Positions 8,210 to 32,000 of a DNA stretch of 32,000 bases are shown here, in pieces. A program made the position numbers and the translations under genes. How positions within the stretch are numbered: position 1 is the first letter of the stretch; each line of letters opens with the position of its first letter. Origin of the DNA: Moraxellaceae bacterium AER2_44_116 (GTDB taxonomy: Bacteria; Pseudomonadota; Gammaproteobacteria; Pseudomonadales; Moraxellaceae); the NCBI GenBank assembly GCA_006546595.1, contig VIAD01000012.1, forward strand, positions 14,122 through 46,121, in the 5' to 3' direction. The notes beneath the pieces were generated by a model. The model searched no databases and had not been told where the DNA came from. It worked only from the letters and a program-made list of their open reading frames with translations.

Positions 8210-8212
8210 ATC

Positions 8213-9118: not shown

Positions 9119-9120
9119 TC

Positions 9121-10409: not shown

Positions 10410-10420
10410 GGTGAATCATT

Positions 10421-10900: not shown

Positions 10901-10906
10901 ATTTAC

Positions 10907-10935
10907 TTGAATGTATTAAATTAAGTTGTTATAAG
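10907..10935 (+). promoter_or_regulatory. Candidate sigma70-type promoter for the cas operon
   Basis: TTGAAT (10907-10912), a 17-nt spacer, then TATAAG (10930-10935), in the AT-rich 105-nt gap upstream of cas3. Pattern match only. Confidence 0.3.
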
Positions 10936-10962
10936 TTAGCAGGATTCATGTAATAAATTAAT

Positions 10963-10978
10963 TTAACTTGCCAAAAAG
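10963..10978 (+). repeat. Degenerate copy of the boundary motif (TTAACTTGCCAAAAAG)
   Basis: It shares TAAC and TGCCAAAA with GTAACCCTGCCAAAA, but the linker is 1 nt rather than 2 nt. It lies between the last phage gene and cas3. Confidence 0.3.
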
Positions 10979-11005
10979 AAGACTAAAAATCAGGGATGGA
11001 TTTTA

Positions 11006-13447: not shown

Positions 13448-13456
13448 AAAGGAGTC

Positions 13457-14176
13457 ATGATGGAAGTTCCTAAAAATAGTATTAGTTTCCGATTGTGGGG
13501 GCGTTATGCGTTATTTACTGACCCTATTACTAAAATCGGTGGTGAGAAATGCTCCTATCATATTCCTACTTATGAGGCGATTAAGGGTGTTTTGAAGTCG
13601 ATTTATTGGAAGCCTACTATTACATGGTATGTCGATAAAGTTAGGGTGATGAAACCGTTAAGAACGCAAACTAAAGGTGTAAAACCCTTAGTTTGGAGTG
13701 CTGGTGGCAATAGCCTTGCTATCTATACGTTTTTGCACGATGTTGAATATCAAGTACAAGCGCATTTTGAATGGAATGAGCACCGTCCTGAATTGGCTCG
13801 GGACAGAGTTGATGGTAAGCATTTTAGTATTGCTAAACGAATGTTAGAAAAAGGTGGACGGCAGGATGTTTTTTTGGGGACACGAGATTGTCAGGGTTAT
13901 GTAGAGCCTTGTGAGTTTGGTGAGGGAGAGAGTCCTTACGCTAATATTGACGAATTGGGTTTTGGGTTGATGTTTCATGGCTTTGATTATCCTGATGAAA
14001 CAGGAGTGGATGAATTGCGTAGCCGTTTTTGGCGAGCAAACATGAGGCATGGCATTATTGAATACCCTAGACCTGAAAATTGTGAGATTAATCGTTTTGT
14101 TCGAGTGATGACTGCCAAAGAGTTTGCGCTAGGAGAAAGCGTATTAGCAGTAGAGCAAGAAGAGGTGCAATCATGA
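13457..14176 (+). CDS. cas5: Cas5c (Cas5d) pre-crRNA endoribonuclease, type I-C
   Basis: 239 aa. The N-terminus FRLWGRYALFTDPITKIGGEKCSYHIPTYEAIKGVLKSIYWKP is characteristic of subtype I-C Cas5. AAAGGAG lies upstream. Confidence 0.93.
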   Translation: MMEVPKNSISFRLWGRYALFTDPITKIGGEKCSYHIPTYEAIKGVLKSIYWKPTITWYVDKVRVMKPLRTQTKGVKPLVWSAGGNSLAIYTFLHDVEYQVQAHFEWNEHRPELARDRVDGKHFSIAKRMLEKGGRQDVFLGTRDCQGYVEPCEFGEGESPYANIDELGFGLMFHGFDYPDETGVDELRSRFWRANMRHGIIEYPRPENCEINRFVRVMTAKEFALGESVLAVEQEEVQS

Positions 14177-16185
14177 GTTGGATGGCAAAGCTCTACGAGA
14201 CATATGAAGCAGGTTTGTTACTGACAGACCTGCCTGATGATAAGCGTCTTATGCCCACTAGCCACACATTGCAAAATGCACATATCAATATTGCTATTGA
14301 TGGTGAAGGAAATTTTAAACGAGCATCTGTACTAGAAAAAACGCAAATTGTATTACCTGCTACTGAACGTTCAGCAAGTCGTAGTAGTGGTGAGGCTCCA
14401 CACCCATTAGCGGATAAATTGCAATATGTTGCTCAAGATTATGCTGCTTATGGTGGACTGAAAAAGCCTTATTTTGATGGATATAAAAAGCTTCTTTCTT
14501 CATGGTGTCTTTCTGAATTTTCTCATCCCAAAGCAACAGCAGTTTTACGTTATATTGAAAAAGGGACTGTGATTAAAGATCTTATTGATCAGAAAGTTGT
14601 TTTTATTGGTGATGATGGACTGTTATTAACATCATGGGTAAATGCTACAGATGATTCCAATCCGACACCAACACTTTTTAAGGTGCTACCTAAAGAAAAA
14701 GGTTTATTAGATCAAGGCTCTGCGTTGGTGTGTTGGACGGTTGAAATAGACTCTAATCCTAATGCCGACACATGGAAGGATAGAACGCTACAGGATAGTT
14801 GGATTGCTTTTGATAACTCTGAAGATAGTGAAGCGGGTTTATGTTTTGTCACAGGTAAAGTTCAATCATTATCTATTAATCATCCTGCAAAAATTCGCCA
14901 CTCAGGAGATAAAGCAAAGCTAATTTCTTCAAACGATACCAGTGGATACACGTATCGGGGGCGGTTTTTGGATAATAAGGAGGCGTGTGGCGTAGGGTTT
15001 GATGTATCGCAAAAGGCTCATAATGCCTTGCGTTGGTTGGTTTCACGGCAAGGTTATCGTAATGGTGATCAGGCATTTGTCTCTTGGGCTGTTTCTGGTA
15101 AAGACATTCCCGAACCATTACAAGACGCTTTTCATTTGTTTTCAAATTTTAATTTTGATGATTTAGATGATAGTGAACCGCATAGATTAAATGAAGATAC
15201 TGTTATAGATCGTAGCCGTGATATAGGCGAGTCATTTGCCCATCAACTTAATAAATACATGGCAGGCTATCGAGCAAAATTAGATCCAAATGAGCAAATT
15301 GTAATTATCGGCCTTGATGCAGCAACGCCAGGGCGAATGGGTATTATTTATTACCGTGAGTTATTAGGCAGTGAGTTTTTACAAAGGCTTGAACATTGGC
15401 ATAAAAGCTTTGCATGGCCACAAAGACATACCATAGACGTGCCTAGCTTATCAGGTAAAAAACCAACGAAAAAAGTTGTTTGGCCTGTCAGTTCCCCTGC
15501 ACCTAAAGATATTGCTTCTGCGGCATATGGGCAGCGGCTATCAGATGAATTGAAGAAAAGCGTGGTTGAGCGTCTTATGCCGTGCATTATTGATGGAAAT
15601 CCATTTCCAATCGATTTAATGGATTCATGTGTACGAATGGCCACTAATCGCAATGGTTATAAAAGTGACGAACAATGGCTTTGGGAAAAGAACCTTGGTA
15701 TTGCCTGCGCGGTATATCGTGGTTATTTCCAACGCCATCCAATTAAAACTCAAAGGAGAGACTACACAATGGCACTGGATGAAAATAATCACTCGCGTGA
15801 TTATCTCTATGGCCGATTATTAGCCGTAGCAGATCGTATTGAGGAGGTTGCATTAAGTGTTGGTGGAGAGAGTCGATCAACAACCGCAGCCCGTTTAATG
15901 CAACGTTTTGCGGATAGACCTTTTTCTACATGGCGTAATATAGAGTTGGCCTTGCAACCGTATATGCAGCGTTTGCAAAACTCCCGCGCTGGTTTTTTAG
16001 TGAACCAAAAGAAAGAGTTGGATGCAATCAATGCCAATTTTAAAACTGAAGACTTTGTGAGTGAAAAAAAGCTATCAGGTGAGTTTTTACTTGGCTTTCA
16101 TTGCCAACGTCAAAAACTAAGAGAAAAAACTGAGTCAACTAACGAAACCATTAACGAAGTAAGCAGTGCAGGGAGTGAAGAATGA
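14173..16185 (+). CDS. cas8c: Cas8c (Csd1) large subunit, type I-C
   Basis: 670 aa. It sits between cas5c and cas7c with ATGA overlaps at both ends. Its size and position are diagnostic of the I-C operon order. Confidence 0.9.
   Translation: MSWMAKLYETYEAGLLLTDLPDDKRLMPTSHTLQNAHINIAIDGEGNFKRASVLEKTQIVLPATERSASRSSGEAPHPLADKLQYVAQDYAAYGGLKKPYFDGYKKLLSSWCLSEFSHPKATAVLRYIEKGTVIKDLIDQKVVFIGDDGLLLTSWVNATDDSNPTPTLFKVLPKEKGLLDQGSALVCWTVEIDSNPNADTWKDRTLQDSWIAFDNSEDSEAGLCFVTGKVQSLSINHPAKIRHSGDKAKLISSNDTSGYTYRGRFLDNKEACGVGFDVSQKAHNALRWLVSRQGYRNGDQAFVSWAVSGKDIPEPLQDAFHLFSNFNFDDLDDSEPHRLNEDTVIDRSRDIGESFAHQLNKYMAGYRAKLDPNEQIVIIGLDAATPGRMGIIYYRELLGSEFLQRLEHWHKSFAWPQRHTIDVPSLSGKKPTKKVVWPVSSPAPKDIASAAYGQRLSDELKKSVVERLMPCIIDGNPFPIDLMDSCVRMATNRNGYKSDEQWLWEKNLGIACAVYRGYFQRHPIKTQRRDYTMALDENNHSRDYLYGRLLAVADRIEEVALSVGGESRSTTAARLMQRFADRPFSTWRNIELALQPYMQRLQNSRAGFLVNQKKELDAINANFKTEDFVSEKKLSGEFLLGFHCQRQKLREKTESTNETINEVSSAGSEE
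15769..16185 (+). CDS. cas11: Candidate internally translated Cas11c small subunit (in frame within cas8c)
   Basis: In-frame ATG (Met533 of Cas8c) preceded by AAGGAG (15753-15758) with a 10-nt spacer. It would give a 138-aa helical C-terminal product, MALDENNHSRDYLYGRLLAVADRIEE.... Confidence 0.5.
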   Translation: MALDENNHSRDYLYGRLLAVADRIEEVALSVGGESRSTTAARLMQRFADRPFSTWRNIELALQPYMQRLQNSRAGFLVNQKKELDAINANFKTEDFVSEKKLSGEFLLGFHCQRQKLREKTESTNETINEVSSAGSEE

Positions 16186-17021
16186 GTAGTCTTGACCATA
16201 AAATTGATTTTGCGGTTATTTTTTCAGTAAAGAACGCCAATCCAAATGGTGACCCATTAAATGGTAATCGTCCTCGTACCGATTATGACGGACTTGGTGA
16301 AATAACGGATGTTTGCTTGAAGCGCAAAATTCGTGATCGTTTGCAAAGTGATGGATATTCAATATTTGTCCAATCTGATGAAAAGAAAACGGATGGCATG
16401 ACTAGCTTAAAAAATCGTGCGGATTCTGATGTTTATGGACTGGGAAAAGACGCGTTTAAAAAGAACAGTAAAGATGAAACAGCAAAGCTTGCCTGTGCAA
16501 AATGGCTAGATGTTCGTGCGTTTGGACAGGTATTTGCGTTTGCAAAAGAATCTGATGCAGCAGGTGTATCTATAGCTATTAGAGGCCCTGTGACAATTCA
16601 ATCTGCATTTAGTCGTGAGCCAATTAGTGTTACCAGTACACAAATAACCAAAAGCGTGAGTGGTGAGGGTGATGGCTCTAAAAAAGGATCGGACACGATG
16701 GGTATGAAACATCGTGTTGATAAAGCTGTTTATGTGACATATGGTGCAATAACACCACAATTGGCAGAGCGTACAGGCTTTAGTAATCAAGATGCTGAAA
16801 GCATTAAGTCGGTATTGCAGAAGTTATTTGAAGGCGATGCATCATCGGCGCGTCCAGAAGGTAGCATGGCTGTATTAAAAGTTATTTGGTGGAAACATAA
16901 CAGCAAATCAGGACAATACTCCTCCGCTAAAGTGCATAACTCTTTGACAGTAAATCCTGATGGTAGTTTTAATTTAGATGATTTAGATGGATTGACTCCA
17001 GAAGTTATCGACGGCTTTTAA
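16182..17021 (+). CDS. cas7: Cas7c (Csd2) backbone subunit, type I-C
   Basis: 279 aa. The N-terminus DFAVIFSVKNANPNGDPLNGNRPRTDYDGLGEITDVCLKRKIRD is a classic Csd2/Cas7 signature. Confidence 0.93.
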   Translation: MSSLDHKIDFAVIFSVKNANPNGDPLNGNRPRTDYDGLGEITDVCLKRKIRDRLQSDGYSIFVQSDEKKTDGMTSLKNRADSDVYGLGKDAFKKNSKDETAKLACAKWLDVRAFGQVFAFAKESDAAGVSIAIRGPVTIQSAFSREPISVTSTQITKSVSGEGDGSKKGSDTMGMKHRVDKAVYVTYGAITPQLAERTGFSNQDAESIKSVLQKLFEGDASSARPEGSMAVLKVIWWKHNSKSGQYSSAKVHNSLTVNPDGSFNLDDLDGLTPEVIDGF

Positions 17022-17030
17022 TGGGATAGT

Positions 17031-17051
17031 GCCACCTTCGGGTGGCTTTTT
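17031..17051 (+). terminator. GC hairpin with a TTCG tetraloop plus T5 between cas7 and cas4
   Basis: GCCACC (17031-17036), TTCG loop, GGTGGC (17041-17046), then TTTTT (17047-17051). It fills most of the 36-nt cas7-cas4 gap. Confidence 0.55.
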
Positions 17052-17057
17052 CTAAGG

Positions 17058-17717
17058 ATGGAAAAAGTGATGCAACATGATGAAATAATATACCTTTCCC
17101 GCCTTCAGCATTTTTTGTTTTGTCCGCGTCAATTTGCCCTTATTGAATTAGAAGGTCTGTGGGAAGAAAATCTCTACACGGCTGAAGGACAGCTATTACA
17201 CCAAAAAGCAGACCAACTCCAACAGCACACACGCAAAAATATTACAACAATAAATGCCATGCCATTGTCATCCTCTGAGCTAGGTATTCAAGGTGTGGCA
17301 GATGTCGTTGAGTTCTATAACTCTCAGGACGATGGTAGTCATCGACCTTTCCCCATTGAATATAAACGTGGTAAGCCAAAAGAGCATCGCGCAGACGAAG
17401 TACAACTTTGTGCCCAAGCTTTATGCTTGGAAAGTATGTTAAACACGGTTGTCCCAGAAGGAGCCTTGTTTTATGGCCAAACAAAACGGCGATTGGTTGT
17501 AACGTTTGATGCAGAGTTGAAGAAACTAACTTTGGATGTTATTGCGAAATGTCGAGAGTTATTAGTCACAGCTAAAACGCCTGCACCAATTTACGAAGAA
17601 AGAAAGTGTAATCGTTGTTCATTGATAGACTTATGCCATCCAAAAACGTTGTGCCGTCAACGCTCCGCAAAACATTGGTTTATAAAACAATTAGAAAAAG
17701 AACAAGGAGGAACTTGA
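17058..17717 (+). CDS. cas4: Cas4 RecB-like exonuclease with an Fe-S cysteine cluster
   Basis: 219 aa. There is an N-terminal Cys (FCPRQFAL), a PD-(D/E)xK-like core (GVADVVEF...EYKRGKP) and a C-terminal CNRCSLIDLC cluster. ATG 17070 is an alternative start. Confidence 0.9.
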   Translation: MEKVMQHDEIIYLSRLQHFLFCPRQFALIELEGLWEENLYTAEGQLLHQKADQLQQHTRKNITTINAMPLSSSELGIQGVADVVEFYNSQDDGSHRPFPIEYKRGKPKEHRADEVQLCAQALCLESMLNTVVPEGALFYGQTKRRLVVTFDAELKKLTLDVIAKCRELLVTAKTPAPIYEERKCNRCSLIDLCHPKTLCRQRSAKHWFIKQLEKEQGGT

Positions 17718-18757
17718 TGCGTCAGTTACGCAATACATTATATGTCAGTACAGAAGGAGCTTGGCTACATAAGGATGGTGAAAATTTGGTTATGGATGTT
17801 GACGGACAGAAAAGAGGTCGCGTTCCTATTCACATGCTGCAAGCATTAGTCTGTTTTGGACGAGTGATGTTGTCACCTCAATTGATGGGTTTCTGTGCAG
17901 AAAAAGGTATTACGGTGACTTTCCTCAATACCTACGGAAAATTTTTGGCGCGAATGGAAGGACCCATTAGCGGTAGTGTGTTATTACGGCGGCGACAACA
18001 CTTAGCATGTGAAAATCCGATCATGGCTTTAGAGATCGTGCGTAATATCGTATGCGCCAAAGTGCATAATCAGCGTGCGGTGGTCAGGCGAGTAATACGT
18101 GACCATGCTGAAAAAATGGACGATAAAGCCAATGGCGAGCTAGAAGATGCACAAAAAAGACTAAAGCGTGTGATTGAATGTGTTCGTTTAGAAACGAATA
18201 TTGAAAGTATTCGAGGTTTTGAAGGTGATGCAGGGCATGTGTATTTTAAGGTGTTTAATCATTTTATTCGTGCTCAAAAAGAAGACTTTATCTTCGATGG
18301 GAGAGAAAGGCGGCCTCCCCGTGATCCTGTCAATGCGCTATTGTCATTTATCTATACATTACTGACTCATGATTGTCGTTCGGCCTTGGAGACAACTGGG
18401 TTGGATTCGGCTAGTGGTTTTTTACATTTTTTGCGGGTTGGTCGTCCTAGTTTGGCTTTAGATTTAATGGAAGAGTTTCGGCCTTTTTTGGCTGATCGAC
18501 TGGTATTGTCGCTTATTAATCGAAAACAGATACAAGCGAGCGACTTTAGTTGTTTGCCCAACGGTGCTGTTGTTATGAAAGATGACGCACGAAAAACTGT
18601 ACTTATGGAGTGGCAGCAACGTAAAGCCGACACACTAACTCATCCGTGGTTTGAAGAAAGTGTGCCTGTAGGTCTTTTTCCGTGGTTGCAAGCACAATTA
18701 TTAGCCCGACATTTACATGGCGAGATAGATGCTTATGTGCCATTTTTATGGAAATAG
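17717..18757 (+). CDS. cas1: Cas1 integrase
   Basis: A start at ATG 17717 (MRQLRNTLYVSTEGAWLHKDGENLV...) overlaps the cas4 TGA by 1 nt and follows AAGGAGG. The track start at 17615 lies inside cas4 and is rejected. The product is 346 aa. Confidence 0.93.
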   Translation: MRQLRNTLYVSTEGAWLHKDGENLVMDVDGQKRGRVPIHMLQALVCFGRVMLSPQLMGFCAEKGITVTFLNTYGKFLARMEGPISGSVLLRRRQHLACENPIMALEIVRNIVCAKVHNQRAVVRRVIRDHAEKMDDKANGELEDAQKRLKRVIECVRLETNIESIRGFEGDAGHVYFKVFNHFIRAQKEDFIFDGRERRPPRDPVNALLSFIYTLLTHDCRSALETTGLDSASGFLHFLRVGRPSLALDLMEEFRPFLADRLVLSLINRKQIQASDFSCLPNGAVVMKDDARKTVLMEWQQRKADTLTHPWFEESVPVGLFPWLQAQLLARHLHGEIDAYVPFLWK

Positions 18758-18778
18758 GTTAATTCATGGAGAGGCGAC

Positions 18779-19069
18779 ATGATGGTATTGGTGAGTTACG
18801 ATGTCTGTTTTCAAAATGATACAGGAGCACGTCGGTTGCGAAGAATAGCAAAAGCTTGCTTAGATTATGGGCAAAGGGTGCAGTATTCGATCTTTGAGAT
18901 TGAGGTAACGCCAGCACAATGGACAATGTTACGGAGTCGCTTATTACAAGAAATTGATCCTGAAGTAGATAGTTTGCGATTTTATTTTTTAGGAAAAAAT
19001 TGGCAGCCAAAGGTTGAACATATTGGAGCTAAGGCTGTTTTGGATTTGAATGGCCCATTGATTTTTTAG
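18779..19069 (+). CDS. cas2: Cas2
   Basis: 96 aa. The MMVLVSYDV... N-terminal beta-strand motif and the position after cas1 support the call. Confidence 0.92.
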   Translation: MMVLVSYDVCFQNDTGARRLRRIAKACLDYGQRVQYSIFEIEVTPAQWTMLRSRLLQEIDPEVDSLRFYFLGKNWQPKVEHIGAKAVLDLNGPLIF

Positions 19070-19257
19070 GCTTGTAGAACATCTGCGAACCTTAAGTAAG
19101 CATTAAAATGCAGGTAGGTTCGCACCTTGTTTTTTGCATATAAAACAAGGTGCTCTTTAAAACTATATTTTTTATTCTAGATGATTGTTCGGTTTCATTA
19201 TGTGTTCGCATTTTAGTGGAAGATGTGCATTTGAAAACAGTATGTTATAACTAGACT
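19070..19257 (+). promoter_or_regulatory. CRISPR leader (AT-rich)
   Basis: 188 nt between the cas2 stop and the first repeat. It is AT-rich. Repeats read ...ATTGAAAC on the + strand, and the degenerate repeat is at the far end. This fixes the leader at this end and + strand transcription. Confidence 0.8.
19084..19153 (+). terminator. Two overlapping stem-loops just downstream of cas2
   Basis: TGCGAACCT (19084-19092) pairs with AGGTTCGCA (19116-19124). GCACCTTGTTTT (19122-19133) pairs with AAAACAAGGTGC (19142-19153) across an 8-nt loop, followed by T/A-rich sequence. The two stems share 3 nt, so they are mutually exclusive. Confidence 0.45.
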
Positions 19258-22200
19258 GTCGCGTCCTCACGGGCGCGTGGATTGAAACGCCTTTTTTAAG
19301 AGCTGTCTTAACGACCGCCACGTCGCGTCCTCACGGGCGCGTGGATTGAAACGTCGGTTGTTGATGATGATGGAATGCCGTTTGATCCGGTCGCGTCCTC
19401 ACGGGCGCGTGGATTGAAACCATTGAAATAACGTGACCTTGCGCTGCATAAACGGGTCGCGTCCTCACGGGCGCGTGGATTGAAACGGCAATTTATCCAA
19501 CGCACAGACAGGCATATTAGGCGTCGCGTCCTCACGGGCGCGTGGATTGAAACGGCTTTATATTTAGCGCAAGATTTTAAAATCTATTGTCGCGTCCTCA
19601 CGGGCGCGTGGATTGAAACTTAACAGGTTTATCAACCGATGCAAACGCTAGTCGTCGCGTCCTCACGGGCGCGTGGATTGAAACATCAAATGTACGACCG
19701 TATTATTGTCCTCAACAAGTCGCGTCCTCACGGGCGCGTGGATTGAAACGTCCCTACGCTCATCGTCGTGTAACACTCGGCTGTTGTCGCGTCCTCACGG
19801 GCGCGTGGATTGAAACAACTGACCGCTAGCACCGTCACTAATGAAAAAGTCGCGTCCTCACGGGCGCGTGGATTGAAACACTCAACAGTACACCCCTGTC
19901 GATGTCCCTAAAGGTCGCGTCCTCACGGGCGCGTGGATTGAAACTACGCCTATTGGTAATGTAATGTTGATTGCTGCAAGTGTCGCGTCCTCACGGGCGC
20001 GTGGATTGAAACAGTTTAAGGAATTATGGCAGATTAAAGCCTTGCCATGTCGCGTCCTCACGGGCGCGTGGATTGAAACACTAATGATGCCGATGGTCTT
20101 GCGTATGCTTATGAGTCGCGTCCTCACGGGCGCGTGGATTGAAACAGCGTATTAAAAACCAAACAAGGCGCGTCTTTAAGGTCGCGTCCTCACGGGCGCG
20201 TGGATTGAAACTATCGTGTAATAGAGTCGTTGGTTATTGTGTCGATGTCGCGTCCTCACGGGCGCGTGGATTGAAACAACGGACCCGATGGCGCATTGGT
20301 ATTGGCAAATGGTCGCGTCCTCACGGGCGCGTGGATTGAAACTGCTTGTGTAAGTCGATTTACGGATAACTGTGCTCGGTCGCGTCCTCACGGGCGCGTG
20401 GATTGAAACACCCGATGACGGTTTGCGTAACGTCACACTGGTGTCGCGTCCTCACGGGCGCGTGGATTGAAACGGCAGCGAGAGCAATTGACAAGGAAAG
20501 ATCTGCATTGTCGCGTCCTCACGGGCGCGTGGATTGAAACAATGCGCGGCACAATAATGAATCTGTGGCCTGGGTCGCGTCCTCACGGGCGCGTGGATTG
20601 AAACTAGGTTGTGAATAACAACTGCTATGAAAAACACGTCGCGTCCTCACGGGCGCGTGGATTGAAACTAGTGAGTGTTGGCCCACCTGTATCAAGAGCT
20701 AATCGTCGCGTCCTCACGGGCGCGTGGATTGAAACATGCAGTATGTAGCAGGTGAATCCCGTTTTATCCGTCGCGTCCTCACGGGCGCGTGGATTGAAAC
20801 ATCGTCTTGAGTTATCAACTCACCAACAACTGATGGTCGCGTCCTCACGGGCGCGTGGATTGAAACTTTGCTTGCAGTGTGGTAGCGATTTCCAGCATTT
20901 CGTCGCGTCCTCACGGGCGCGTGGATTGAAACATTCGCCAATTGCTGATGATAGTTATCGTCGTATTGTCGCGTCCTCACGGGCGCGTGGATTGAAACAT
21001 TAAAAGAACAAATAAAAAGCGGATGCAATAGCGTCGCGTCCTCACGGGCGCGTGGATTGAAACTACTTGGCCTGCCAATGTGTCACGGGCTTGGTTTAAG
21101 TCGCGTCCTCACGGGCGCGTGGATTGAAACTGCATAACGGGCGTGACTAACGGTTTTACTAGGTCGCGTCCTCACGGGCGCGTGGATTGAAACTTGTGCG
21201 GGATAGTTAAAGCCGCAAAAATCAACAGTCGCGTCCTCACGGGCGCGTGGATTGAAACTTTACCGCTCCAAAAAATCCCATTCAATTGATACGGTCGCGT
21301 CCTCACGGGCGCGTGGATTGAAACGTCTGATAACTCATCAATGCCAAAATGTTTTTTTAGTCGCGTCCTCACGGGCGCGTGGATTGAAACTTCAAAATTG
21401 AAAGCGATGATTTAAGATAAACGTGTGTCGCGTCCTCACGGGCGCGTGGATTGAAACAAATATGCTTTGGGAATTTCTCAAGAATCCTGAGTCGCGTCCT
21501 CACGGGCGCGTGGATTGAAACTTTTATTGTCATTGTCATTTTTTGAATCCTCATGCTGTCGCGTCCTCACGGGCGCGTGGATTGAAACATTTGATACGCC
21601 AAAAAATACGCAATTTAAAGTTGTCGCGTCCTCACGGGCGCGTGGATTGAAACGTGGTCTTGGCCAATGCCTTGAAACTTACTGTCGTTGCGTCGCGTCC
21701 TCACGGGCGCGTGGATTGAAACACCACGTAAGTGATATTTGTGCGAGTAATAGTTAATGTCGCGTCCTCACGGGCGCGTGGATTGAAACATTTAGTGCTT
21801 TTTCGCCACGATCTTCATATGGCTCACGTCGCGTCCTCACGGGCGCGTGGATTGAAACAATCGCCTACAAGAGCAATTTACAGGGAAATATGCGTCGCGT
21901 CCTCACGGGCGCGTGGATTGAAACCGCTATTTTGTATGCCTGACGCACTAGCATCACTATGTCGCGTCCTCACGGGCGCGTGGATTGAAACTTATACTAC
22001 GCGATATATAGCAACAGTGAAAAGAACGTCGCGTCCTCACGGGCGCGTGGATTGAAACGTTCGGACTGCCGCCATATCGCGCAATACAAGCCTGTCGCGT
22101 CCTCACGGGCGCGTGGATTGAAACGGGTATTGGTGGATTTTGATTTTGTGAAACGTGGGGGGTCGCGTCCTCACGGGCGCGTGGATTGAAACAAGCCTAC

Positions 22201-25200
22201 GCGCCCAAATCAAACAATTAACGGTACGTCGCGTCCTCACGGGCGCGTGGATTGAAACGGTGTTGTTCGTCGTTATGGTGCGAGTCAATCCAATGTCGCG
22301 TCCTCACGGGCGCGTGGATTGAAACATTGGGACTACCACCGTATCTCGCTATACAAGCTTGTCGCGTCCTCACGGGCGCGTGGATTGAAACTTAATCAGT
22401 CCGTCCTTTTTCCCGTTTTTATCAATGTCGCGTCCTCACGGGCGCGTGGATTGAAACTCAGCACAAATACGACTTAGATTTTTATAGCATCGTCGCGTCC
22501 TCACGGGCGCGTGGATTGAAACTTCTAAAGCCGATACTGTTCAATCTGCTTCTAAAGTCGCGTCCTCACGGGCGCGTGGATTGAAACATATAGTCAGGAA
22601 ATTTACTACGTAATTTAAACTGGTCGCGTCCTCACGGGCGCGTGGATTGAAACTCTAGCTCGTTAAGCTGATCTGTTATCGCTTTCTTTGTCGCGTCCTC
22701 ACGGGCGCGTGGATTGAAACGTTTTGATGGCAGACCAAAAGCCGAAGAAGCGTGGGCGTCGCGTCCTCACGGGCGCGTGGATTGAAACCCGTGATGAGAT
22801 ACACCTTTCCAGATTTTGGCTTAGTCGCGTCCTCACGGGCGCGTGGATTGAAACTCTGCACTGATAGAGATATTTGTTTTACTCTTTGAGGTCGCGTCCT
22901 CACGGGCGCGTGGATTGAAACTTGTTGATAGCAATAAAATCCCGTTAGATATGGCAGGTCGCGTCCTCACGGGCGCGTGGATTGAAACACATCATGGCGG
23001 CGACTATAGCAAGATAAAAACGGTCGCGTCCTCACGGGCGCGTGGATTGAAACCCATCACAGCGATAATAAGCACTCATTTTTTAACAAGTCGCGTCCTC
23101 ACGGGCGCGTGGATTGAAACAAAGTGGCATAAACCGCTTTGAAGTAGTCGTTAAAGTCGCGTCCTCACGGGCGCGTGGATTGAAACGTCGAAATGTGAAC
23201 GATGCGCCAAGAGGCGGCAAGTCGCGTCCTCACGGGCGCGTGGATTGAAACACGACAATACCAAGATTTTTACGGCAATAATTTAGGTCGCGTCCTCACG
23301 GGCGCGTGGATTGAAACCTCTATCTCTAGAAGTATCAAACCTTTCTCTAGAGCGTCGCGTCCTCACGGGCGCGTGGATTGAAACAAAAACGCCTACAAGC
23401 TCACTGTCGAGGCTGTAATGGTCGCGTCCTCACGGGCGCGTGGATTGAAACAGACAACAAGCCGTTAACCATTGGGATGACCTCATGTCGCGTCCTCACG
23501 GGCGCGTGGATTGAAACCACTATGACGGTGTCGGGGGAGTTGTTGACTCCAGTCGCGTCCTCACGGGCGCGTGGATTGAAACGTTCTGTCGTTGTTCAGT
23601 GTCTAGGGTCTAACGAAGTCGCGTCCTCACGGGCGCGTGGATTGAAACATTGTGGCAAATTCCGTGACACTTGGGCTTATAATTCGTCGCGTCCTCACGG
23701 GCGCGTGGATTGAAACCGTCTTTGTGTGGCTCTGCTACGCGTAAACCTGCCATGTCGCGTCCTCACGGGCGCGTGGATTGAAACTAGTCCCTTATCGCGT
23801 CTTTGAAACACTCACAAATGTCGCGTCCTCACGGGCGCGTGGATTGAAACTTTAGATCGTAGTAAGTTTGAATATTTACATAAAGTCGCGTCCTCACGGG
23901 CGCGTGGATTGAAACAGGGATTATCTCTTGAGGCGCAGATTATCTACCTGCGTCGCGTCCTCACGGGCGCGTGGATTGAAACGGGCGGCACATGGGCGGC
24001 TGGTTTATCGCAATCAATGTCGCGTCCTCACGGGCGCGTGGATTGAAACTCAATTTTGGCATAAGCAACAACATCTGCGCGTGTGTCGCGTCCTCACGGG
24101 CGCGTGGATTGAAACGACATATTCCATTTTGTTTGACCGGGTGTCGTGAGTCGCGTCCTCACGGGCGCGTGGATTGAAACTTCGTAGGTGTCACTTGGTG
24201 TATAAGAACAGGAAACGTCGCGTCCTCACGGGCGCGTGGATTGAAACATGTTCGTCATCGAAAATTTGATTTTTATTAGGTCGCGTCCTCACGGGCGCGT
24301 GGATTGAAACAGCGAATGCCCGTCAGAACTACATTTTGCTAATAAGTCGCGTCCTCACGGGCGCGTGGATTGAAACAGCCGTAACCACTGTACGCACGGT
24401 ATTTGAACAATGTCGCGTCCTCACGGGCGCGTGGATTGAAACGCCTGTAGCCGCATCAGCCACCGCCTCGACCATCTGTCGCGTCCTCACGGGCGCGTGG
24501 ATTGAAACTTTGACGCTCGGCATTAGTTGGTGATGTTTTGTTGTCGCGTCCTCACGGGCGCGTGGATTGAAACGACGCATGGCCGACTAGCCCACTTGCT
24601 TCTCATAGTCGCGTCCTCACGGGCGCGTGGATTGAAACGTCATCAGTTACGCCTTTGTAGCGTGTTTGATCTTGTCGCGTCCTCACGGGCGCGTGGATTG
24701 AAACCTATTTTTGGTAAATATAACGCGGCAAACACGCAAGTCGCGTCCTCACGGGCGCGTGGATTGAAACATTGAATGTGACATGGATTTTTGTGCATCA
24801 CGTTCGGTCGCGTCCTCACGGGCGCGTGGATTGAAACTTCTTCGGAGACTTGGCGCATTGGCTTACGTTGACGTCGCGTCCTCACGGGCGCGTGGATTGA
24901 AACCATTAAACTCGCACCCCTAAAATTTTATAAACATGTCGCGTCCTCACGGGCGCGTGGATTGAAACCATTGTCAAGCCCTCAATATTTACATAGCTAA
25001 TATGTCGCGTCCTCACGGGCGCGTGGATTGAAACACAGATGCACGTTTGTGGTCTTGGTCGTTATCAAGTCGCGTCCTCACGGGCGCGTGGATTGAAACC
25101 GCCTGAAACGCGCTAAATTCCTCGTCTTTTTGCTTGTCGCGTCCTCACGGGCGCGTGGATTGAAACTCGCATGAAAGCTCATGCAGTGCTGAATGTGCCG

Positions 25201-27687
25201 GTCGCGTCCTCACGGGCGCGTGGATTGAAACCTAAACCTGACGGCTTTGAAGATGAAAGCGAAGTTGTCGCGTCCTCACGGGCGCGTGGATTGAAACATG
25301 GGTTTGATGTAACTGAGATTTGAGTTAAGAAAGTCGCGTCCTCACGGGCGCGTGGATTGAAACAGTAGCATATCCGCCGTATGCAGTTTATCTTGGTAGT
25401 CGCGTCCTCACGGGCGCGTGGATTGAAACGCGCTAAAGCTCGTCGCATCAAGAAAAAACACGGCGCGTCGCGTCCTCACGGGCGCGTGGATTGAAACAGC
25501 TAAAGATACTTTATCTTCGACCCACACATCACGTCGCGTCCTCACCGGGCGCGTGGATTGAAACAAAAGTACCGTACACAACCATACAGAGGATACTAAC
25601 AGTCGCGTCCTCACGGGCGCGTGGATTGAAACTGTATAAGTACCATCGCCATCTGACCCACCACCAATACGTCGCGTCCTCACGGGCGCGTGGATTGAAA
25701 CGTATATATCGGCGCAGGTCGCCATTGATGACGGGGTGTCGCGTCCTCACGGGCGCGTGGATTGAAACACGGCAAGACGTAATTCAGGGTGCATATAGAT
25801 TTGTCGCGTCCTCACGGGCGCGTGGATTGAAACTTTTATTCGCGGCTTTAAATATGAGGAATGTGGTTGTCGCGTCCTCACGGGCGCGTGGATTGAAACA
25901 AAAAATGAAAGTCACACTCAAAAAAGCCAAGTCACGTCGCGTCCTCACGGGCGCGTGGATTGAAACCAAACATTCGCCATCTTCATTTTCTAATGTTGTC
26001 CGGTCGCGTCCTCACGGGCGCGTGGATTGAAACGGGTGTTAGCAGGCGATGGTTAACAATAGGGAAATGTCGCGTCCTCACGGGCGCGTGGATTGAAACG
26101 TCTGTGCTGTTTTTAGGTCAAACATATCAAGGCAAGTCGCGTCCTCACGGGCGCGTGGATTGAAACATAAACACAATTTTATTTTATTTGAAGTTCATAC
26201 AAGGTCGCGTCCTCACGGGCGCGTGGATTGAAACTGGTGCTGTTGTGCGCATTGATGCAGGCGCGGCAGAGTCGCGTCCTCACGGGCGCGTGGATTGAAA
26301 CCCAAAGTTACATTGATTGAACGTAAATGAGTCAGTGTCGCGTCCTCACGGGCGCGTGGATTGAAACGGTGGTTGTTGATATTTATATTGAATCATTGGC
26401 TGGTCGCGTCCTCACGGGCGCGTGGATTGAAACATTCAGTGTAGCCACATCATCTAAGCGCATTTTGTGTCGCGTCCTCACGGGCGCGTGGATTGAAACA
26501 TAGCATACGCTCAGAAAGTGCCGAGCAAGATATTGGTCGCGTCCTCACGGGCGCGTGGATTGAAACAATTTGATGCGTACATTTTTGCAGCCGATTACGA
26601 CGTCGCGTCCTCACGGGCGCGTGGATTGAAACCGCCAACCGTGTGCCTAAAAATCTTAGTGCCTTGTCGCGTCCTCACGGGCGCGTGGATTGAAACAACT
26701 GTCCACCCCAAAGCCGCCGACTCAGGACTAGTCGCGTCCTCACGGGCGCGTGGATTGAAACACAACATTTGCAGCGCGTACCTGTTTTGACTTCATGTCG
26801 CGTCCTCACGGGCGCGTGGATTGAAACGTCTTAAACGACATAACCAACGCACTAAAATAGTCGTCGCGTCCTCACGGGCGCGTGGATTGAAACGCTGCAT
26901 CTTCTAATGACGAAGCCAAAATCAGGTACGTCGCGTCCTCACGGGCGCGTGGATTGAAACCCAGAGATGGCCGCAAAAGCTAAAGCGGTCATGTGTCGCG
27001 TCCTCACGGGCGCGTGGATTGAAACCTCGTACAACTTTAGACACGCAACCGCACCGACAAGTCGCGTCCTCACGGGCGCGTGGATTGAAACCAATTGGTT
27101 TGGGTGCGGCAAAAAGACAGAGCCTTGTCGCGTCCTCACGGGCGCGTGGATTGAAACTGTCGATTCAGGCTCAAAGGGGGGCACTTGCATACGTCGCGTC
27201 CTCACGGGCGCGTGGATTGAAACAATTGAATTGCTTACGGTGATAGAACTATCAATGGGTCGCGTCCTCACGGGCGCGTGGATTGAAACTTGAATTCGAC
27301 ACGCCAAAAAACTTATACAACCCTGGTCGCGTCCTCACGGGCGCGTGGATTGAAACAACGCTGGACAGATTGATAGCAAAACGACAATGGAGTCGCGTCC
27401 TCACGGGCGCGTGGATTGAAACATGTCGGTGAATTTGTCTAGTGTTAGACCGCCGTGTCGCGTCCTCACGGGCGCGTGGATTGAAACATGATTAAGCAGC
27501 AAGCGTGAAGATACTGCTGAAGCGTCGCGTCCTCACGGGCGCGTGGATTGAAACTACCTCCCGTATTTGCTCTTTTACCCAATGAGTCTGTCGCGTCCTC
27601 ACGGGCGCGTGGATTGAAACATCTACGCCGCCAATCATGCAAATGCCGAGGCTAAGTCGCGTCCTCACGGGCGCGTGGATTTGTAAC
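19258..27687 (+). CRISPR. Type I-C CRISPR array: 128 repeats (127 consensus-length plus 1 degenerate terminal) and 127 spacers
   Basis: Hand enumeration of every repeat start, from 19258, 19322, 19390 ... to 27590 and 27656. The 31-nt repeat GTCGCGTCCTCACGGGCGCGTGGATTGAAAC has a GCGTCC/GGGCGC stem, a TCAC loop and a 3' ATTGAAAC tag. Spacers are 32-38 nt and the mean period is about 66 nt. One repeat (25533-25564) carries an extra C. The last repeat matches for 26 nt and then diverges. Confidence 0.99.
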
Positions 27688-27690
27688 CCT
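27683..27690 (+). repeat. Partial boundary-motif copy (GTAACCCT) fused to the terminal repeat
   Basis: The sequence reads ...GCGCGTGGATT-TGTAACCCTCGAACAAAC. The first 8 nt of the phage boundary motif begin 2 nt after the point where the last repeat stops matching. GTAAC could instead be a mutated GAAAC repeat end. Confidence 0.35.
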
Positions 27691-27718
27691 CGAACAAACC
27701 CACTTTTTTATCGCATAC

Positions 27719-27758
27719 CCTAGTCGTAACTTAAAAATCTTACGACTAGGTGTTTTCT
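27719..27758 (+). terminator. 11-bp hairpin plus T-rich tract at the distal end of the array
   Basis: CCTAGTCGTAA (27719-27729) pairs with TTACGACTAGG (27740-27750) across a 10-nt loop, followed by TGTTTTCT. The 3' arm contains the AGG of the likely SD for ATG 27759. Confidence 0.5.
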
Positions 27759-29498
27759 ATGTCAGCTTTACTTTCTCAAATTAACAACACCGCGCACCAA
27801 GGCGCATTTGGCCATAACCCTCGATCTGAACCCACACTCGCTCAATTAGCCGCAGGTAACTACAAAAAAGGCGTAGTGATGGTGAAAGGGTTAAGTATTG
27901 CCATTGAAAACCCCGCTTACACCTACCGCAAAGGCATGGATAAATCAGGCAAAGAATGGATGTGCTTGATGCAGGCACACTATGGCTATATTCAGGGTCA
28001 TAGAGGCAATGACGGCGATGAAATGGATGTATTTATCGGCAATGTGCCTGAAAACGACACGGTTTATATCGTCAATCAAAAAACAGCAGACGGCTATTTT
28101 GACGAACATAAAATCATGCTTGGCTTCCTGTCACAACAGCAAGCCGTTGACACCTATCAACACTGTTTTGAGCGTGGTTGGACGGGTTTAATGAGTGTTG
28201 TGCCTTGCACCATGACGCAATTCAAGTGGTGGTTAGCCAATGGTGATAAGTCACGGCCTGTCACTTTAGACCGCTTGCCCTACGCAGGATTAGAGCGTTT
28301 GGATAGTGTGATTTGGGGCGGTAATGACGGGTCAGACTTAGCCAGTCATAGTGGCCAAGTACATAAATTGTTGTACCAGATTCGCCAATGTGATGACACG
28401 CATCAAGCCTTAGAGCCTTTGTCTTATAACGATTTAGTGCAAGAACTTGGCAATCAAGGTTTTATGTACGAAAACTATGATGCATTAGTCGTTGAGTACA
28501 ACAAATTAGAGAAAAAAGCCAAGCAATTACTCATGGTGATGCAAGGTGCGGCCAGTAGTGTTAAGCCCATTGGTGTCACTGTAGGTAAGCCATTAACCAA
28601 GGGCGGTGTGGCTAATGTCGTTGCATGGTTTGAGATGGATGATGGTCAAGCCGTGGGTGTGTTTTTCCATAACCCTGATAAAACGCCTAAAAAGATTGAC
28701 CCCATGGACGAGATGATTAGCTACAAATGGGTGCTTAACAAAAAAGACATTACCATTGCCGTTGCGCCTGAGCAGGGTAAGGATTTGATTATTCGTACCG
28801 TCGCTAAGCGCATTATGCAGTTGGTTGAAAAGAATCATGACCGTTTTGTCAAAGCCAATGGTGACAAGGCCGCACTGAATCAGGCAGAGCAAGACTTAAC
28901 CGCTAAAGTGGCAGAAAAACAAGCGACCTTGAAAGGTTTGCAAGATGACGTTGCCGCGTTGCAGGCGAAGAAAGCCGAAAAAGATGCTTTTACACTCCAA
29001 GCCCAAACCGAAGCAGACCTACGCCAACGTGAAGCCGAAGCTCAAGCCGCTGAAGCTGAACGATTAGCGCAAGAGAAAGCTGCAAAAGATAAAGCACAGG
29101 CCGATAAAGATGCGGCTGATTTCCGTTTGACAGGTAGTAATTTGCCAGCCGATGTAGCGGCAGCAGGTGGTCAACAGGATTTATTAGCCAGCGGCAATCA
29201 AAACGATAAAGAAGATGCAGAAAAAGAAGCATTTGTTACCTCTACTCAAGAGCAACAGCCACCACAACCCGTAAGCGAGCCAGCTACACCAACCCAAGAA
29301 GACCAAGACCGTGAATTCTTACAGTCTGCTATTGACGAAAAAATCAACATTTTAGATGCCGCTAATGTCAATAAATTGGCCGAGTTATCAAAAATCTATA
29401 CCCAAGGTGACATGAACGGTCTGATTAAACAAGCCAAACAAGTTGCGATTTCCGCAATCACACGCAGCGTTGCGCAAGCGACAGCGAATATTGGTTAA
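27759..29498 (+). CDS. Inorganic-pyrophosphatase-fold domain protein with an acidic/coiled-coil C-terminal region
   Basis: AHYGYIQGHRGNDGDEMDVFIG resembles the family I PPase core (NYGYI...DGDPVDVLV). The C-terminal half is low-complexity and coiled-coil-like (EAEAQAAEAERLAQEKAAKDKAQADKDAAD). ATG 27759 is preferred over the track's GTG at 27750, which lies in the hairpin. Confidence 0.6.
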   Translation: MSALLSQINNTAHQGAFGHNPRSEPTLAQLAAGNYKKGVVMVKGLSIAIENPAYTYRKGMDKSGKEWMCLMQAHYGYIQGHRGNDGDEMDVFIGNVPENDTVYIVNQKTADGYFDEHKIMLGFLSQQQAVDTYQHCFERGWTGLMSVVPCTMTQFKWWLANGDKSRPVTLDRLPYAGLERLDSVIWGGNDGSDLASHSGQVHKLLYQIRQCDDTHQALEPLSYNDLVQELGNQGFMYENYDALVVEYNKLEKKAKQLLMVMQGAASSVKPIGVTVGKPLTKGGVANVVAWFEMDDGQAVGVFFHNPDKTPKKIDPMDEMISYKWVLNKKDITIAVAPEQGKDLIIRTVAKRIMQLVEKNHDRFVKANGDKAALNQAEQDLTAKVAEKQATLKGLQDDVAALQAKKAEKDAFTLQAQTEADLRQREAEAQAAEAERLAQEKAAKDKAQADKDAADFRLTGSNLPADVAAAGGQQDLLASGNQNDKEDAEKEAFVTSTQEQQPPQPVSEPATPTQEDQDREFLQSAIDEKINILDAANVNKLAELSKIYTQGDMNGLIKQAKQVAISAITRSVAQATANIG

Positions 29499-29513
29499 GG
29501 GAAGGGCTAGCAT

Positions 29514-32000
29514 ATGAAAACAGATTACGAAAAATTCAAAATTATCGGCAAAATCTCCCTTTTGTTGCGCCAGTTGGATGAGCAACCAAAAGTTGAGCTG
29601 GATATGTTTGGTGAGCCTATCGCTTCACCTAATAAGACGCTCGATGTCACCCGTGTTGATGTCAAAGACATTAAAGTTGATCCTAAAGCCTACCAATTCC
29701 GTAGTGAAGTTGGCCATGACGGTACCGACAAACGCTTGAATGAAGTCAAAGCGTGGGATGACTTACGGGCAGGGGTCATGGTGATACATGAGCGTCACGA
29801 TGGCCAACAGTTTATTGCCGATGGTCATCACCGTATTGCTTTGGCAAAGAAATTAGGTGTCGATGGCGTTAATGCCTTTGTCTTGAAAGAAAGCGAAGGG
29901 CATACCGTCGATGATGCCAAATCATTAGCCGCCTTAGTCAACTTGGCCAACAATAACGGCACAGGGGTCGATGCCGCTAAATTGTTCCGAAGCAATGCCA
30001 ACGGCAAACGTCCTGAACAGTTAATGGAGGACTTAAACCTGCCTAAAAACCAAGCCATTAAAACGGGTGTTGCCTTGGCCAAACTTTCCGACGATGTGTT
30101 TGGTTCGGTGGTCAATGGTGTGATTGAAGAGCGTGATGGTGCGGTCATTGGTGATACGTTTAGTAGTCCAGAGGAACAACAAGCCGCCTTAAAGCAGTTT
30201 ATGCGTGTACGTCCTGCGAACCAAGAAGAGTCTCAAGTCTTAGCACAACAGATTAAATTAGCAGGATTCTCTAAGGCGCAAGCGTCCGATAACTTTGACT
30301 TGTTTGGTAGCGAGTTAGATACCGATAGTTTGTTAGGTGAACGGACACGGTTAATCGTGGCACTCGGTCGCGCCTATAAAAAAGATAAAACCTTGTTTGA
30401 AACACTGGGGATCAATGCCAGCAAAATTGAGCAGGCAGGCAATCAACTGGATAAGGAAACCAATTCCAAGCTAAGTAATGAAGCGACCGTCATGCAATCA
30501 TTACTGGGTGAGCAGATTTATACTAATCCCAAAATGAAGCAGGTCTTAGACCAATACGCCACGGAGCTAAAAGATCATCCGAATGGTATGGCCGCTATTT
30601 TGGCCAAGCTTAAACAAGCCTTGCCACAGGTCGTACAACACACGAAGGCTGTTTTTGATGAAGGTGGTGATGACGCTCATGTCTTTGCCTTGATTGCTGA
30701 AGCATCGTCCTTACTGAGTACCTTAAATGCCGACGACGCTGACTTTTTTATCAAGCTGCTTCGACTACAAGAAATTATTCAAGCATTAAATGGTGCGCAT
30801 CTCAGCAATGACTCCACCCATACAGACGTAGCTCCTCTACCTAACGCTAATACCGAAGAAACCGAACCCCCTGAAACCGATCTTATCGGTGATGTGGATG
30901 ATGGCTTATCGGATCACTATCAAGACGATAATTATCGCTTTAAAGATGTGGGCTATATTGCAGGGGCAAGAAAAGAGAAAGCTCAACTCGCCATCATGCA
31001 GGCAAAAAAATCAGGGCAGTTAGTATCCGTCACCGATATTGATTGGGATGCCTTGGAAGATGATTCCCGTATGGCGGCCGCCACAATCATTAAAAAGAAT
31101 GTCTTTGGTCAGGTCGATTGGGATGCGCTGAAAGACGGCGGCATGAATGGCAACGTGGGTTATTTTATTAAACGATTGTATGCAGCAGTCGAGTTACAGC
31201 CCGATGATGATTCACCCGAGGGGCGCAAACTCTATGTCACGGCGATTCAAAATCTACGTCAACTGTTTGAGTCCTGCCAAACAATGGATGATGCCGTTCG
31301 TGAAATTGTCGCGTTGAGTAAATTGCTCAATACCCATCGCAATATGATTAAAGGTGAAGATGGCAAAGCCACACTCAACTATGACTCTCAAGTGGCGAAT
31401 GCTTTAGGCAAAAAGTTTAAGAGTTGGGTGTTTAAGACTGGCAATAAAGCCATTCATGAGTCCAGAGTAATGGCCAATGATGATTGGTCTTGGTTAGAAA
31501 AAAGCGATAAGCCCACGGTAAGCAAGCCCAAAAAACAAGGGTTTCAATTAGAAGCGGCGAGCCATATTCAACGTGTCGGCGGTACCGAAGTCAGTATTCA
31601 ATCGACTGAACAGTTTAAAGACGCTTTTGGCTTAAAAGCGATTCAGTCGGGTAATTGGGTATTAAAAGATAAAGAGAGCATTGAGTTTCATATTCAACGG
31701 GCGGCGGAGTCGATGCTCGATATGGCCGATGTCACAGGGATTGCGCCTGAGTTATTGGGTTTTGGTGGTCGTTTAGGTTTGGCGTTTGGTGCTAGAGGTA
31801 AAGGTGGGGCGTTGGCGCATTATGAACCTGTTGCCCGTGTCATTAACATTACCAAGATGAAAGGTGGTGGTTCACTGGGGCATGAATACTTTCACGCCTT
31901 GGATAACCTAATACAAGACCTTGTGACGCAACAGAACAACGGTAAGGCGGGTTTTTTTGCTACCGAAACACCGCATTTGTTGCCTGAGAGTTTAACTAAA
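29514..32000 (+). CDS. Large polyvalent protein, N-terminal 829 codons (ParB-like nuclease domain plus zincin-like HExxH domain); continues past the window
   Basis: The frame is open from ATG 29514 to the last base of the window. It is absent from the ORF track because it has no stop. A ParB/Srx-type motif is present (FIADGHHRIALAKKLG). Near the end, LAFGARGKGGALAHYEPVARVINITKMKGGGSLGHEYFHALDN matches my recollection of the metallopeptidase-like module of phage and conjugative-element polyvalent proteins. Confidence 0.8.
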   Translation, partial: MKTDYEKFKIIGKISLLLRQLDEQPKVELDMFGEPIASPNKTLDVTRVDVKDIKVDPKAYQFRSEVGHDGTDKRLNEVKAWDDLRAGVMVIHERHDGQQFIADGHHRIALAKKLGVDGVNAFVLKESEGHTVDDAKSLAALVNLANNNGTGVDAAKLFRSNANGKRPEQLMEDLNLPKNQAIKTGVALAKLSDDVFGSVVNGVIEERDGAVIGDTFSSPEEQQAALKQFMRVRPANQEESQVLAQQIKLAGFSKAQASDNFDLFGSELDTDSLLGERTRLIVALGRAYKKDKTLFETLGINASKIEQAGNQLDKETNSKLSNEATVMQSLLGEQIYTNPKMKQVLDQYATELKDHPNGMAAILAKLKQALPQVVQHTKAVFDEGGDDAHVFALIAEASSLLSTLNADDADFFIKLLRLQEIIQALNGAHLSNDSTHTDVAPLPNANTEETEPPETDLIGDVDDGLSDHYQDDNYRFKDVGYIAGARKEKAQLAIMQAKKSGQLVSVTDIDWDALEDDSRMAAATIIKKNVFGQVDWDALKDGGMNGNVGYFIKRLYAAVELQPDDDSPEGRKLYVTAIQNLRQLFESCQTMDDAVREIVALSKLLNTHRNMIKGEDGKATLNYDSQVANALGKKFKSWVFKTGNKAIHESRVMANDDWSWLEKSDKPTVSKPKKQGFQLEAASHIQRVGGTEVSIQSTEQFKDAFGLKAIQSGNWVLKDKESIEFHIQRAAESMLDMADVTGIAPELLGFGGRLGLAFGARGKGGALAHYEPVARVINITKMKGGGSLGHEYFHALDNLIQDLVTQQNNGKAGFFATETPHLLPESLTK

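Follow-up and report, generated by a model that had tools for sequence, protein, structure and literature searches.

The DNA window analysed here is a stretch of 32,000 nucleotides (nt) from the freshwater Moraxellaceae bacterium AER2_44_116, C31:14122-46121 of a 98.5-kb contig (VIAD01000012.1, C31 below). It contains a long clustered regularly interspaced short palindromic repeat (CRISPR) array and the type I-C cas operon that serves it, both embedded in phage genes. Positions without a contig name are those of the window. The array spans 19258-27687 (8,430 bp) and, by an anchored regular-expression count, consists of 128 repeats and 127 spacers. An independent repeat finder agrees with this repeat count. 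Searching the whole genome for a 26-nt repeat core gave 127 exact matches, the core being broken by an insertion in repeat 96, with no match on the reverse strand and none for the reversed pattern used as a control. All copies of the repeat are on the + strand of this array, and the pattern search found none elsewhere in the 3.55-Mb assembly. Such a repeat array cannot be chance. The sequence-only reading that drew attention to this locus had given the same count at the same place and had described all repeats as identical except one with a 1-nt insertion and the terminal one; its count was exact and its description of the repeats was right.

The identical unit, shared by 126 of the 128 repeats, is the 31-nt sequence GTCGCGTCCTCACGGGCGCGTGGATTGAAAC. 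Repeat 96 (25533-25564, + strand) has one extra C in the loop, which leaves the stem intact and makes the loop 5 nt long. The terminal repeat, number 128 (27656-27687, + strand), is degenerate and has the 3' end TTTGTAAC instead of TTGAAAC. The repeat is predicted to fold into a hairpin with a stem of 7 bp and a tetraloop, leaving 11 nt as a 3' tail; its length (31 nt against about 32), GC-rich hairpin and 3' handle ending in ATTGAAAC are those of type I-C repeats. An Rfam search of the cassette returned no family over threshold. No two of the 127 spacers are the same; their length is 32-38 nt, most often 35. Spacers 43 (22059-22093) and 47 (22326-22360), both on the + strand, are identical at 27 of 35 positions in the same register and form the sole pair clearly above shuffled controls, whose maximum was 20-22. 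As judged from this alignment, they are two alleles of one protospacer, which suggests repeated sampling of related invaders.

Directly upstream of the array are seven intact open reading frames (ORFs), all on the + strand, in the order cas3-cas5-cas8c-cas7-cas4-cas1-cas2. The first, cas3 (11006-13447), encodes an 813-amino-acid (aa) HD nuclease and helicase with Pfam Cas3_HD, DEAD, Helicase_C and Cas3-like_C_2 on one ORF. It is followed by cas5c (Cas5d; 13457-14176; Pfam Cas_Cas5d, E 1e-47), the pre-crRNA (precursor CRISPR RNA) processing subunit of type I-C; by cas8c (Csd1; 14173-16185; Cas_Csd1, E 3.5e-131), which encodes the large subunit and is the I-C signature gene; and by cas7c (Csd2; 16182-17021; Cas_Cas7, E 2.6e-75). 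The adaptation genes are cas4 (17058-17717; Cas_Cas4, E 5e-21), cas1 (17717-18757; Cas_Cas1, E 1e-102) and cas2 (18779-19069; CRISPR_Cas2, E 2.7e-25). From the sequence, cas1 likely starts at the ATG at 17717, which is preceded by a GGAGG site, while its longest ORF runs from 17615. The locus thus holds Cas8c with Cas5c and Cas7c, a Cas3 with HD and superfamily-2 helicase domains, and a cas4-cas1-cas2 adaptation module: judged by gene content, it is a complete type I-C gene set. We find no cas6 among the seven contiguous assigned ORFs (11006-19069), as expected of a type I-C operon, because Cas5c processes the pre-crRNA. Between cas2 and repeat 1 lies a leader of 188 nt (19070-19257, + strand; 67% A+T) that ends in ATGTTATAACTAGACT. 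As the degenerate repeat is at the far end from this leader, spacer addition is expected at the near end, at 19258.

The operon recurs in another species of the genus (G002:C119), in a copy with 93% DNA identity. Its Cas8c shares 94% aa identity with the one described here, and the leaders of the two loci are about 82% identical. The ratio of nonsynonymous to synonymous substitution rates (dN/dS) against the G002 orthologues is 0.05-0.13 for all seven cas genes, with cas3 at 0.13; this implies that the Cas proteins, including those for adaptation, are under purifying selection. The G002 copy (G002:C119:1-8190) has a different upstream context and a 32-nt variant of the repeat. It also has apparent deletions of about 190 bp in cas7 and about 150 bp in cas1 and a stop in cas4, which may reflect decay or errors of draft assembly. 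The G002 genome is an 88%-complete draft in 280 contigs, and we gave these apparent cas defects no weight.

Comparison with related phages defines the limits of the cassette. The last conserved phage backbone gene on its left (10421-10900, + strand; phrog_4597, unknown function, PHROGs E 6e-36) has 81-92% nt identity in three IMG/VR viral contigs, and homology to them ends at 10894-10904. The left junction and the region upstream of cas3 (10901-11005, + strand) are missing from related phages; homology to the cas operon of G002:C119 starts at about 10904. At the right junction (27688-27749, + strand), phage homology picks up again at 27716. The first backbone gene there (27750-29498, + strand) encodes a protein like DarA of phage P1 (Pfam InPase, E 9e-50; DarA_N, E 1e-36). 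Two IMG/VR contigs, UViG_3300027710_000070 and UViG_3300020047_010688, have an empty site: with 85-95% nt identity on both flanks, they match the window over 8136-10894, continue for 30-105 nt only, and then match from 27716 onward. The DarA-like protein has 90-92% aa identity in both. Given this empty site, the 16,815 bp from 10901 to 27715, comprising cas operon, leader and array, are an insertion at a variable cargo site. The mobile-element context claimed by the sequence-only reading is thereby borne out: phage genes flank the cassette left and right, and related viral contigs have the precise site without it. We considered a chromosomal island merely abutting a prophage and rejected it, as virion genes lie on both sides and relatives have the empty site.

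The cassette is compositionally distinct: its cas genes have 40.2% G+C, against 46.9% and 45.4% in the two phage flanks. No transposase or integrase is found inside it. The altered end of the last repeat (TTTGTAAC) merges with a GTAACCC motif that is found at the junction in the empty-site phages. At the G002 locus the cassette has the same left limit (about 10904) with unrelated sequence next to it, so within the genus the cassette has at least two settings. Just upstream of the DarA-like gene is a hairpin whose stem has 11 bp (27719-27729 with 27740-27750) and which is conserved in related phages. In the present phage this hairpin follows the array at a distance of 31 nt and might terminate the pre-crRNA.

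Other relatives carry other things at this position. The third viral contig, UViG_3300009419_000146, is homologous to the window up to 10904 and then has different cargo (L091:13189-13417), unrelated sequence that is apparently the end of a minus-strand gene. The site is thus a hotspot for several kinds of cargo, seen in four forms: empty, with a solitary type I-F repeat, with another gene, and with I-C CRISPR-Cas. The solitary repeat is found in the closest sister phage, UViG_3300027710_000070, exactly at the empty site, and a second one lies about 16 kb downstream. The hairpin and handle of these repeats (L033:9873-9895, minus strand; L085:1424-1446) match the host-type I-F repeat at 22 of 23 positions, and we regard them as candidates for RNA anti-CRISPRs, or for remnants of mini-arrays, directed against the host I-F system. 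The window itself has no solitary type I-F repeat.

The carrier has virion genes of the kind found in phage P1 and Xanthomonas phage Rb1, and we estimate the genomes of its relatives at about 87 kb. CheckV rated one relative of 36.3 kb as 42% complete and another of 43.4 kb as 50% complete, which yields this figure. By PHROGs and Pfam, the genes upstream of the cassette encode baseplate, tail tube, portal, large terminase, a Gp10-like baseplate protein, a tail protein with an SLT domain and tail-fibre proteins. Downstream are the InPase/DarA_N protein, a 1,061-aa polyvalent protein with LPD1, the capsid-like phrog_1014, tail sheath and a lysin-like protein, together with Hdf-like, PmgG-like and PmgB-like proteins, members of PHROG families that are named after P1 genes although the similarity to P1 is distant. 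By analogy with the Dar proteins of P1, the InPase/DarA_N and LPD1 polyvalent proteins (27750-32000) are probably anti-restriction proteins injected with the virion. As their genes directly follow the array, the CRISPR cassette adjoins the counter-defence genes of the phage.

The nearest sequenced backbones are those of Rb1 and of 80-115-kb Burkholderia and Pseudomonas plasmids, at 30-45% protein identity. Rb1 (PQ569993.1; 91.5 kb, circular, with a serine recombinase) shares terminase, portal, capsid, sheath, tube, baseplate and DarA-like proteins that are 30-45% identical, and in tblastn searches all homologues of its virion module map to C31. Unlike the present phage, Rb1 has no CRISPR-Cas annotated in the parts inspected, and its gene order is partly rearranged. 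Tail-sheath matches to Acinetobacter phage and plasmid records are weak (22-30% aa identity), and no P1 record is among the tail-sheath matches. Near-identical DNA is absent from the phage and plasmid collections searched. Among species-representative genomes, close homologues of the DarA-like protein occur only in Agitococcus lubricus DSM 5822; a related phage is present in another genome of the same genus. The host is accordingly probably Agitococcus or a near relative within the Moraxellaceae. The virion genes, about 46 kb, consist of ORFs without interruption; environmental viral contigs have them in the same order, at 75-95% identity. One odd passenger of the virion module is a gene for an exonuclease VII large subunit (XseA-like) between the baseplate and tail-tube genes, on C31 upstream of the window (L009:6149-7420).

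From C31:63242 on, just upstream of prfC, the DNA is conserved across the eight other genomes that represent the genus. The phage is therefore integrated in the chromosome or, at the least, on one contig with it. A P1-type episome was rejected, as the un-gapped part of the contig passes from phage genes into prfC and core chromosome. We saw no replication or partition genes on the contig. No contig-end overlap links C31 to another contig, and the search for the other prophage end by synteny with the genome G004 led to a non-phage region of contig C23. Downstream of prfC are two short intergenic elements (C31:68600-68715 and 71890-71942; L011:8600-8715 and 11890-11942) with dozens of copies, 80-95% identical, here and in all members of the genus; they resemble repetitive extragenic palindromic (REP) elements or miniature inverted-repeat transposable elements (MITEs).

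Two spacers match prophages in genomes of the same genus. Spacer 76 (24248-24279, + strand) matches, at 31 of 32 nt and with a 5'-TTC protospacer-adjacent motif (PAM), the gene of a cro-like regulator beside a CI-like repressor in a prophage (G004:C20). Spacer 115 (26828-26862, + strand) matches, at 32 of 35 nt and with TTT at the PAM position, the gene for the major tail protein in a prophage fragment of siphovirus type (G003:C134). Spacer 2 gives a weaker match (31 of 34 nt, TGC at the PAM position) to a Zot-like gene of an integrated filamentous phage (inovirus; G002:C70) in the same genus, and this phage is also matched, at 30 of 32 nt, by spacer IF37 of the host I-F array. The protospacer flanks are thus TTC for spacer 76, TTT for spacer 115 and TGC for the weak match of spacer 2, three cases only. 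The putative targets that can be identified are other temperate phages of the host genus.

Wider searches added nothing to these three. Chunked searches of all eight genus genomes found no targets beyond those of spacers 76, 115 and 2, and no spacer matched the host's own genome. Fetched relatives (about 640 kb), including the fetched parts of the carrier phage's relatives, gave no new match. Against 50,697 phage records there was only one match, 33 of 37 nt, which is at chance level, and among 72,556 plasmids only other I-C arrays were matched. IMG/VR had no match to degenerate patterns made for spacers 43/47 and for spacer 76.

Established type I-C biology indicates how such a system would work. 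The A+T-rich leader would drive a + strand pre-crRNA, and Cas5c would cleave this RNA at the base of each 7-bp repeat hairpin to leave an 11-nt 5' handle. A Cascade of Cas5, Cas8c and Cas7 would locate protospacers flanked by 5'-TTC, Cas3 would degrade the target, and acquisition of spacers by Cas1, Cas2 and Cas4 would take place next to the leader. Because the targets are temperate phages of the same host genus, the system would most likely shield the lysogen, together with its resident prophage, from competing phages. By analogy with characterised I-C systems, we infer processing, interference and adaptation activity and this protective role. In our judgement the array is probably the memory of a complete I-C system that protects the lysogen and that is carried, on the cassette at 10901-27715, in a hotspot of a large temperate myovirus integrated at prfC.

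Several observations weigh against this reading. Only two or three of the 127 spacers have an identifiable target, which leaves about 98% unmatched. An exact-repeat scan of IMG/VR for sibling arrays returned none; the same scan of Joint Genome Institute (JGI) metagenomes gave two contigs that have the repeat with unrelated spacers, and no sibling array. Homologues of the early, lysogeny and replication genes of Rb1 are not on the contig by tblastn, and the left end of the prophage runs off C31. There is also a scaffold gap of 100 N at C31:57241-57340, within an RTX-repeat ORF. The join over this gap is supported by a related viral contig with the same gene spacing and by a 95%-identical segment beyond. 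The ORF that the gap breaks is a giant one with RTX calcium-binding repeats in the phage region (C31:54072-59360; L010:14072-19360), and similar RTX-like repeats match several chromosomal loci of a same-genus genome.

The sequence-only reading took the near-perfect repeat identity, together with intact cas1, cas2 and cas4, as a sign of active and fairly recent adaptation. The genes are indeed intact, with strong Pfam matches; repeat identity, on the other hand, is normal for any working array. What does point toward adaptation are the dN/dS values of 0.05-0.13, the one protospacer with a TTC PAM and the allelic spacers 43 and 47, and on these grounds active, recent adaptation is plausible.

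We know of no phage-borne array with more than 100 spacers. Complete CRISPR-Cas systems were found in 27 of 26,987 prophages and in 1 of 2,498 phages (PMC7145637), and phages under 200 kb rarely encode CRISPR systems according to a review (PMC11656645). Arrays of huge phages have a median of six repeats (PMC7162821), and the Acinetobacter baumannii phage-plasmid PPTOP has few spacers, which its authors lay to capsid space (bioRxiv 10.1101/2023.09.20.558655). The literature thus agrees with the earlier remark that phage arrays are usually short. The array is less unusual beside those of its host. The host chromosome has a type I-F system (C26:315080-330401). In its array (C26:323821-330401), about 110 identical repeats of 28 nt alternate with spacers of 32-33 nt, and no spacer targets the resident phage. 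In the family, chromosomal I-C arrays of 6-11 kb are frequent. The length that had been called exceptional for a mobile element is hence unusual for a phage and ordinary for the host. The claim that the array takes a large share of a capsid-limited genome fares similarly: the mobile context stands, whereas a capsid limit is not established for an element integrated by prfC with a host-sized array. We think, as the simplest reading, that this host-sized array grew mostly at host-like rates during vertical inheritance as a prophage.

This bears on whether the carrier still moves. The prophage could be defective or grounded, having lost excision or packaging after integration, so that its CRISPR now behaves like a chromosomal locus and the length of the array says nothing about capsid limits. 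This is a serious possibility that falls somewhat short of being probable. It fits the integration next to prfC and the lack, on the contig, of the early, lysogeny and replication homologues of Rb1, and it fits an array as long as the host I-F array and the chromosomal I-C arrays of the family. Added to a genome of about 87 kb, the 16.8-kb cassette is about 19% extra, and in headful packaging of the P1 type this is at or above the usual terminal redundancy. Moreover, no IMG/VR contig has this Cas8c or the exact repeat. Against grounding speaks the virion module of about 46 kb, still uninterrupted and collinear with its environmental relatives, and the missing modules may lie past the contig end.

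The implicit view of the sequence-only reading was the reverse, that the phage is fully viable and packages the whole array of 127 spacers as a capsid-limited, transferable immune library. We consider this possible and lean against it. The intact virion module, the close relatives in viromes and metagenomes, and the placement of the cassette at a hotspot where relatives carry other cargo all argue for viability. The excess size, the integrated state, the host-like size of the array and the lack of a viral contig with the cassette all argue against it.

A different use of the system would be counter-defence of the kind known from Vibrio phage ICP1, with spacers aimed at host defence islands or satellites rather than at rival phages. 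As summarised in PMC11656645 (from Seed et al. 2013), ICP1 resembles the present phage in having a complete CRISPR-Cas with an adaptation module, at an exchangeable position that in sister phages is taken up by different cargo. According to the same source (PMC11656645), ICP1 is lytic, and its type I-F system has short arrays with spacers that target the host anti-phage island PLE, whereas the phage described here is temperate and integrated and has a type I-C system of 127 spacers whose identified targets are other phages. The position of the cassette beside DarA-like and polyvalent anti-restriction genes, and the anti-CRISPR-like solitary I-F repeats of a related phage at the same spot, would suit counter-defence. 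However, no spacer matches the host genome, the matched targets are cro-like, tail and Zot-like genes of prophages, and a temperate integrated phage with a memory of 127 spacers is unlike ICP1 with its few dedicated ones; we therefore regard this explanation as improbable. Protection of the lysogen, or competition between phages, fits targets that are other temperate phages, and ICP1-style counter-defence does not.

It is very improbable that a chromosomal CRISPR island was misjoined to phage sequence through its repeats. The assembly is a short-read draft of 36 contigs with 55-nt end overlaps and scaffold gaps, and arrays are hard to assemble, but the left junction, from phage gene to cas3, is in unique sequence, none of the 127 spacers occurs twice, and the 31-nt repeat is shorter than the k of 55. 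The right junction is formed by the degenerate repeat, which has no second copy and runs together with the GTAACCC junction motif of the phage itself, and three independent relatives have the two flanks side by side.

The locus, which we take to protect the lysogen, belongs to an already known class, phage- or prophage-encoded CRISPR-Cas, and is unusual in its array size and its well-defined insertion hotspot. PPTOP is presumably from the same bacterial family and, as here, is a temperate element of about 100 kb in which CRISPR-Cas (type I-Fa) is an alternative cargo (bioRxiv 10.1101/2023.09.20.558655). There it alternates with type I restriction-modification and is proposed to fight rival prophages (bioRxiv 10.1101/2023.09.20.558655). 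PPTOP is an episome with an I-F system and few spacers, whereas the present phage is integrated and has an I-C system with an array as long as chromosomal ones. CRISPR-Cas of huge phages is likewise phage-encoded and proposed to add to host immunity against competing phages; unlike here, the genomes exceed 200 kb, the arrays are compact and many systems are without adaptation or interference genes (PMC7162821). I-C systems on chromosomes or integrative and conjugative elements (ICEs), in Pseudomonas aeruginosa (bioRxiv 10.1101/2020.06.15.151498) and among Moraxellaceae arrays, have the same seven-gene order and 34-37-nt spacers, and a TTC PAM, the motif that flanks the best of the three protospacers here. 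They also share the repeat with a GC-rich hairpin and an ATTGAAC-type end (ATTGAAAC), and chromosomes of the family have arrays of 6-11 kb. The present locus differs from them in its 31-nt repeat, one base under the 32-nt form of the same-genus copy, and in its context, a cluster of phage virion genes.

This locus offers a clean natural case, in which filled, empty and alternative-cargo versions of one site can be compared. The solitary host-type I-F repeats that sister phages have at the same hotspot may rival the length of the array in interest. The boldest form of the argument is that a still viable phage packages an entire I-C system, competent for adaptation and holding 127 spacers, at a hotspot that alternates between anti-CRISPR and CRISPR payloads. 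We find this doubtful. If true, it would be, to our knowledge, the largest CRISPR memory on any phage under 200 kb, and it would serve as a library of immunity that can be passed on, acquired by a lysogen through a single infection. More generally, a large temperate phage appears here to have acquired a whole adaptive immune system with a host-sized memory. It becomes testable how much accessory DNA such phages can bear, whether spacer acquisition during lysogeny gradually grounds them, and whether prophage CRISPR systems may spread immunity between strains.

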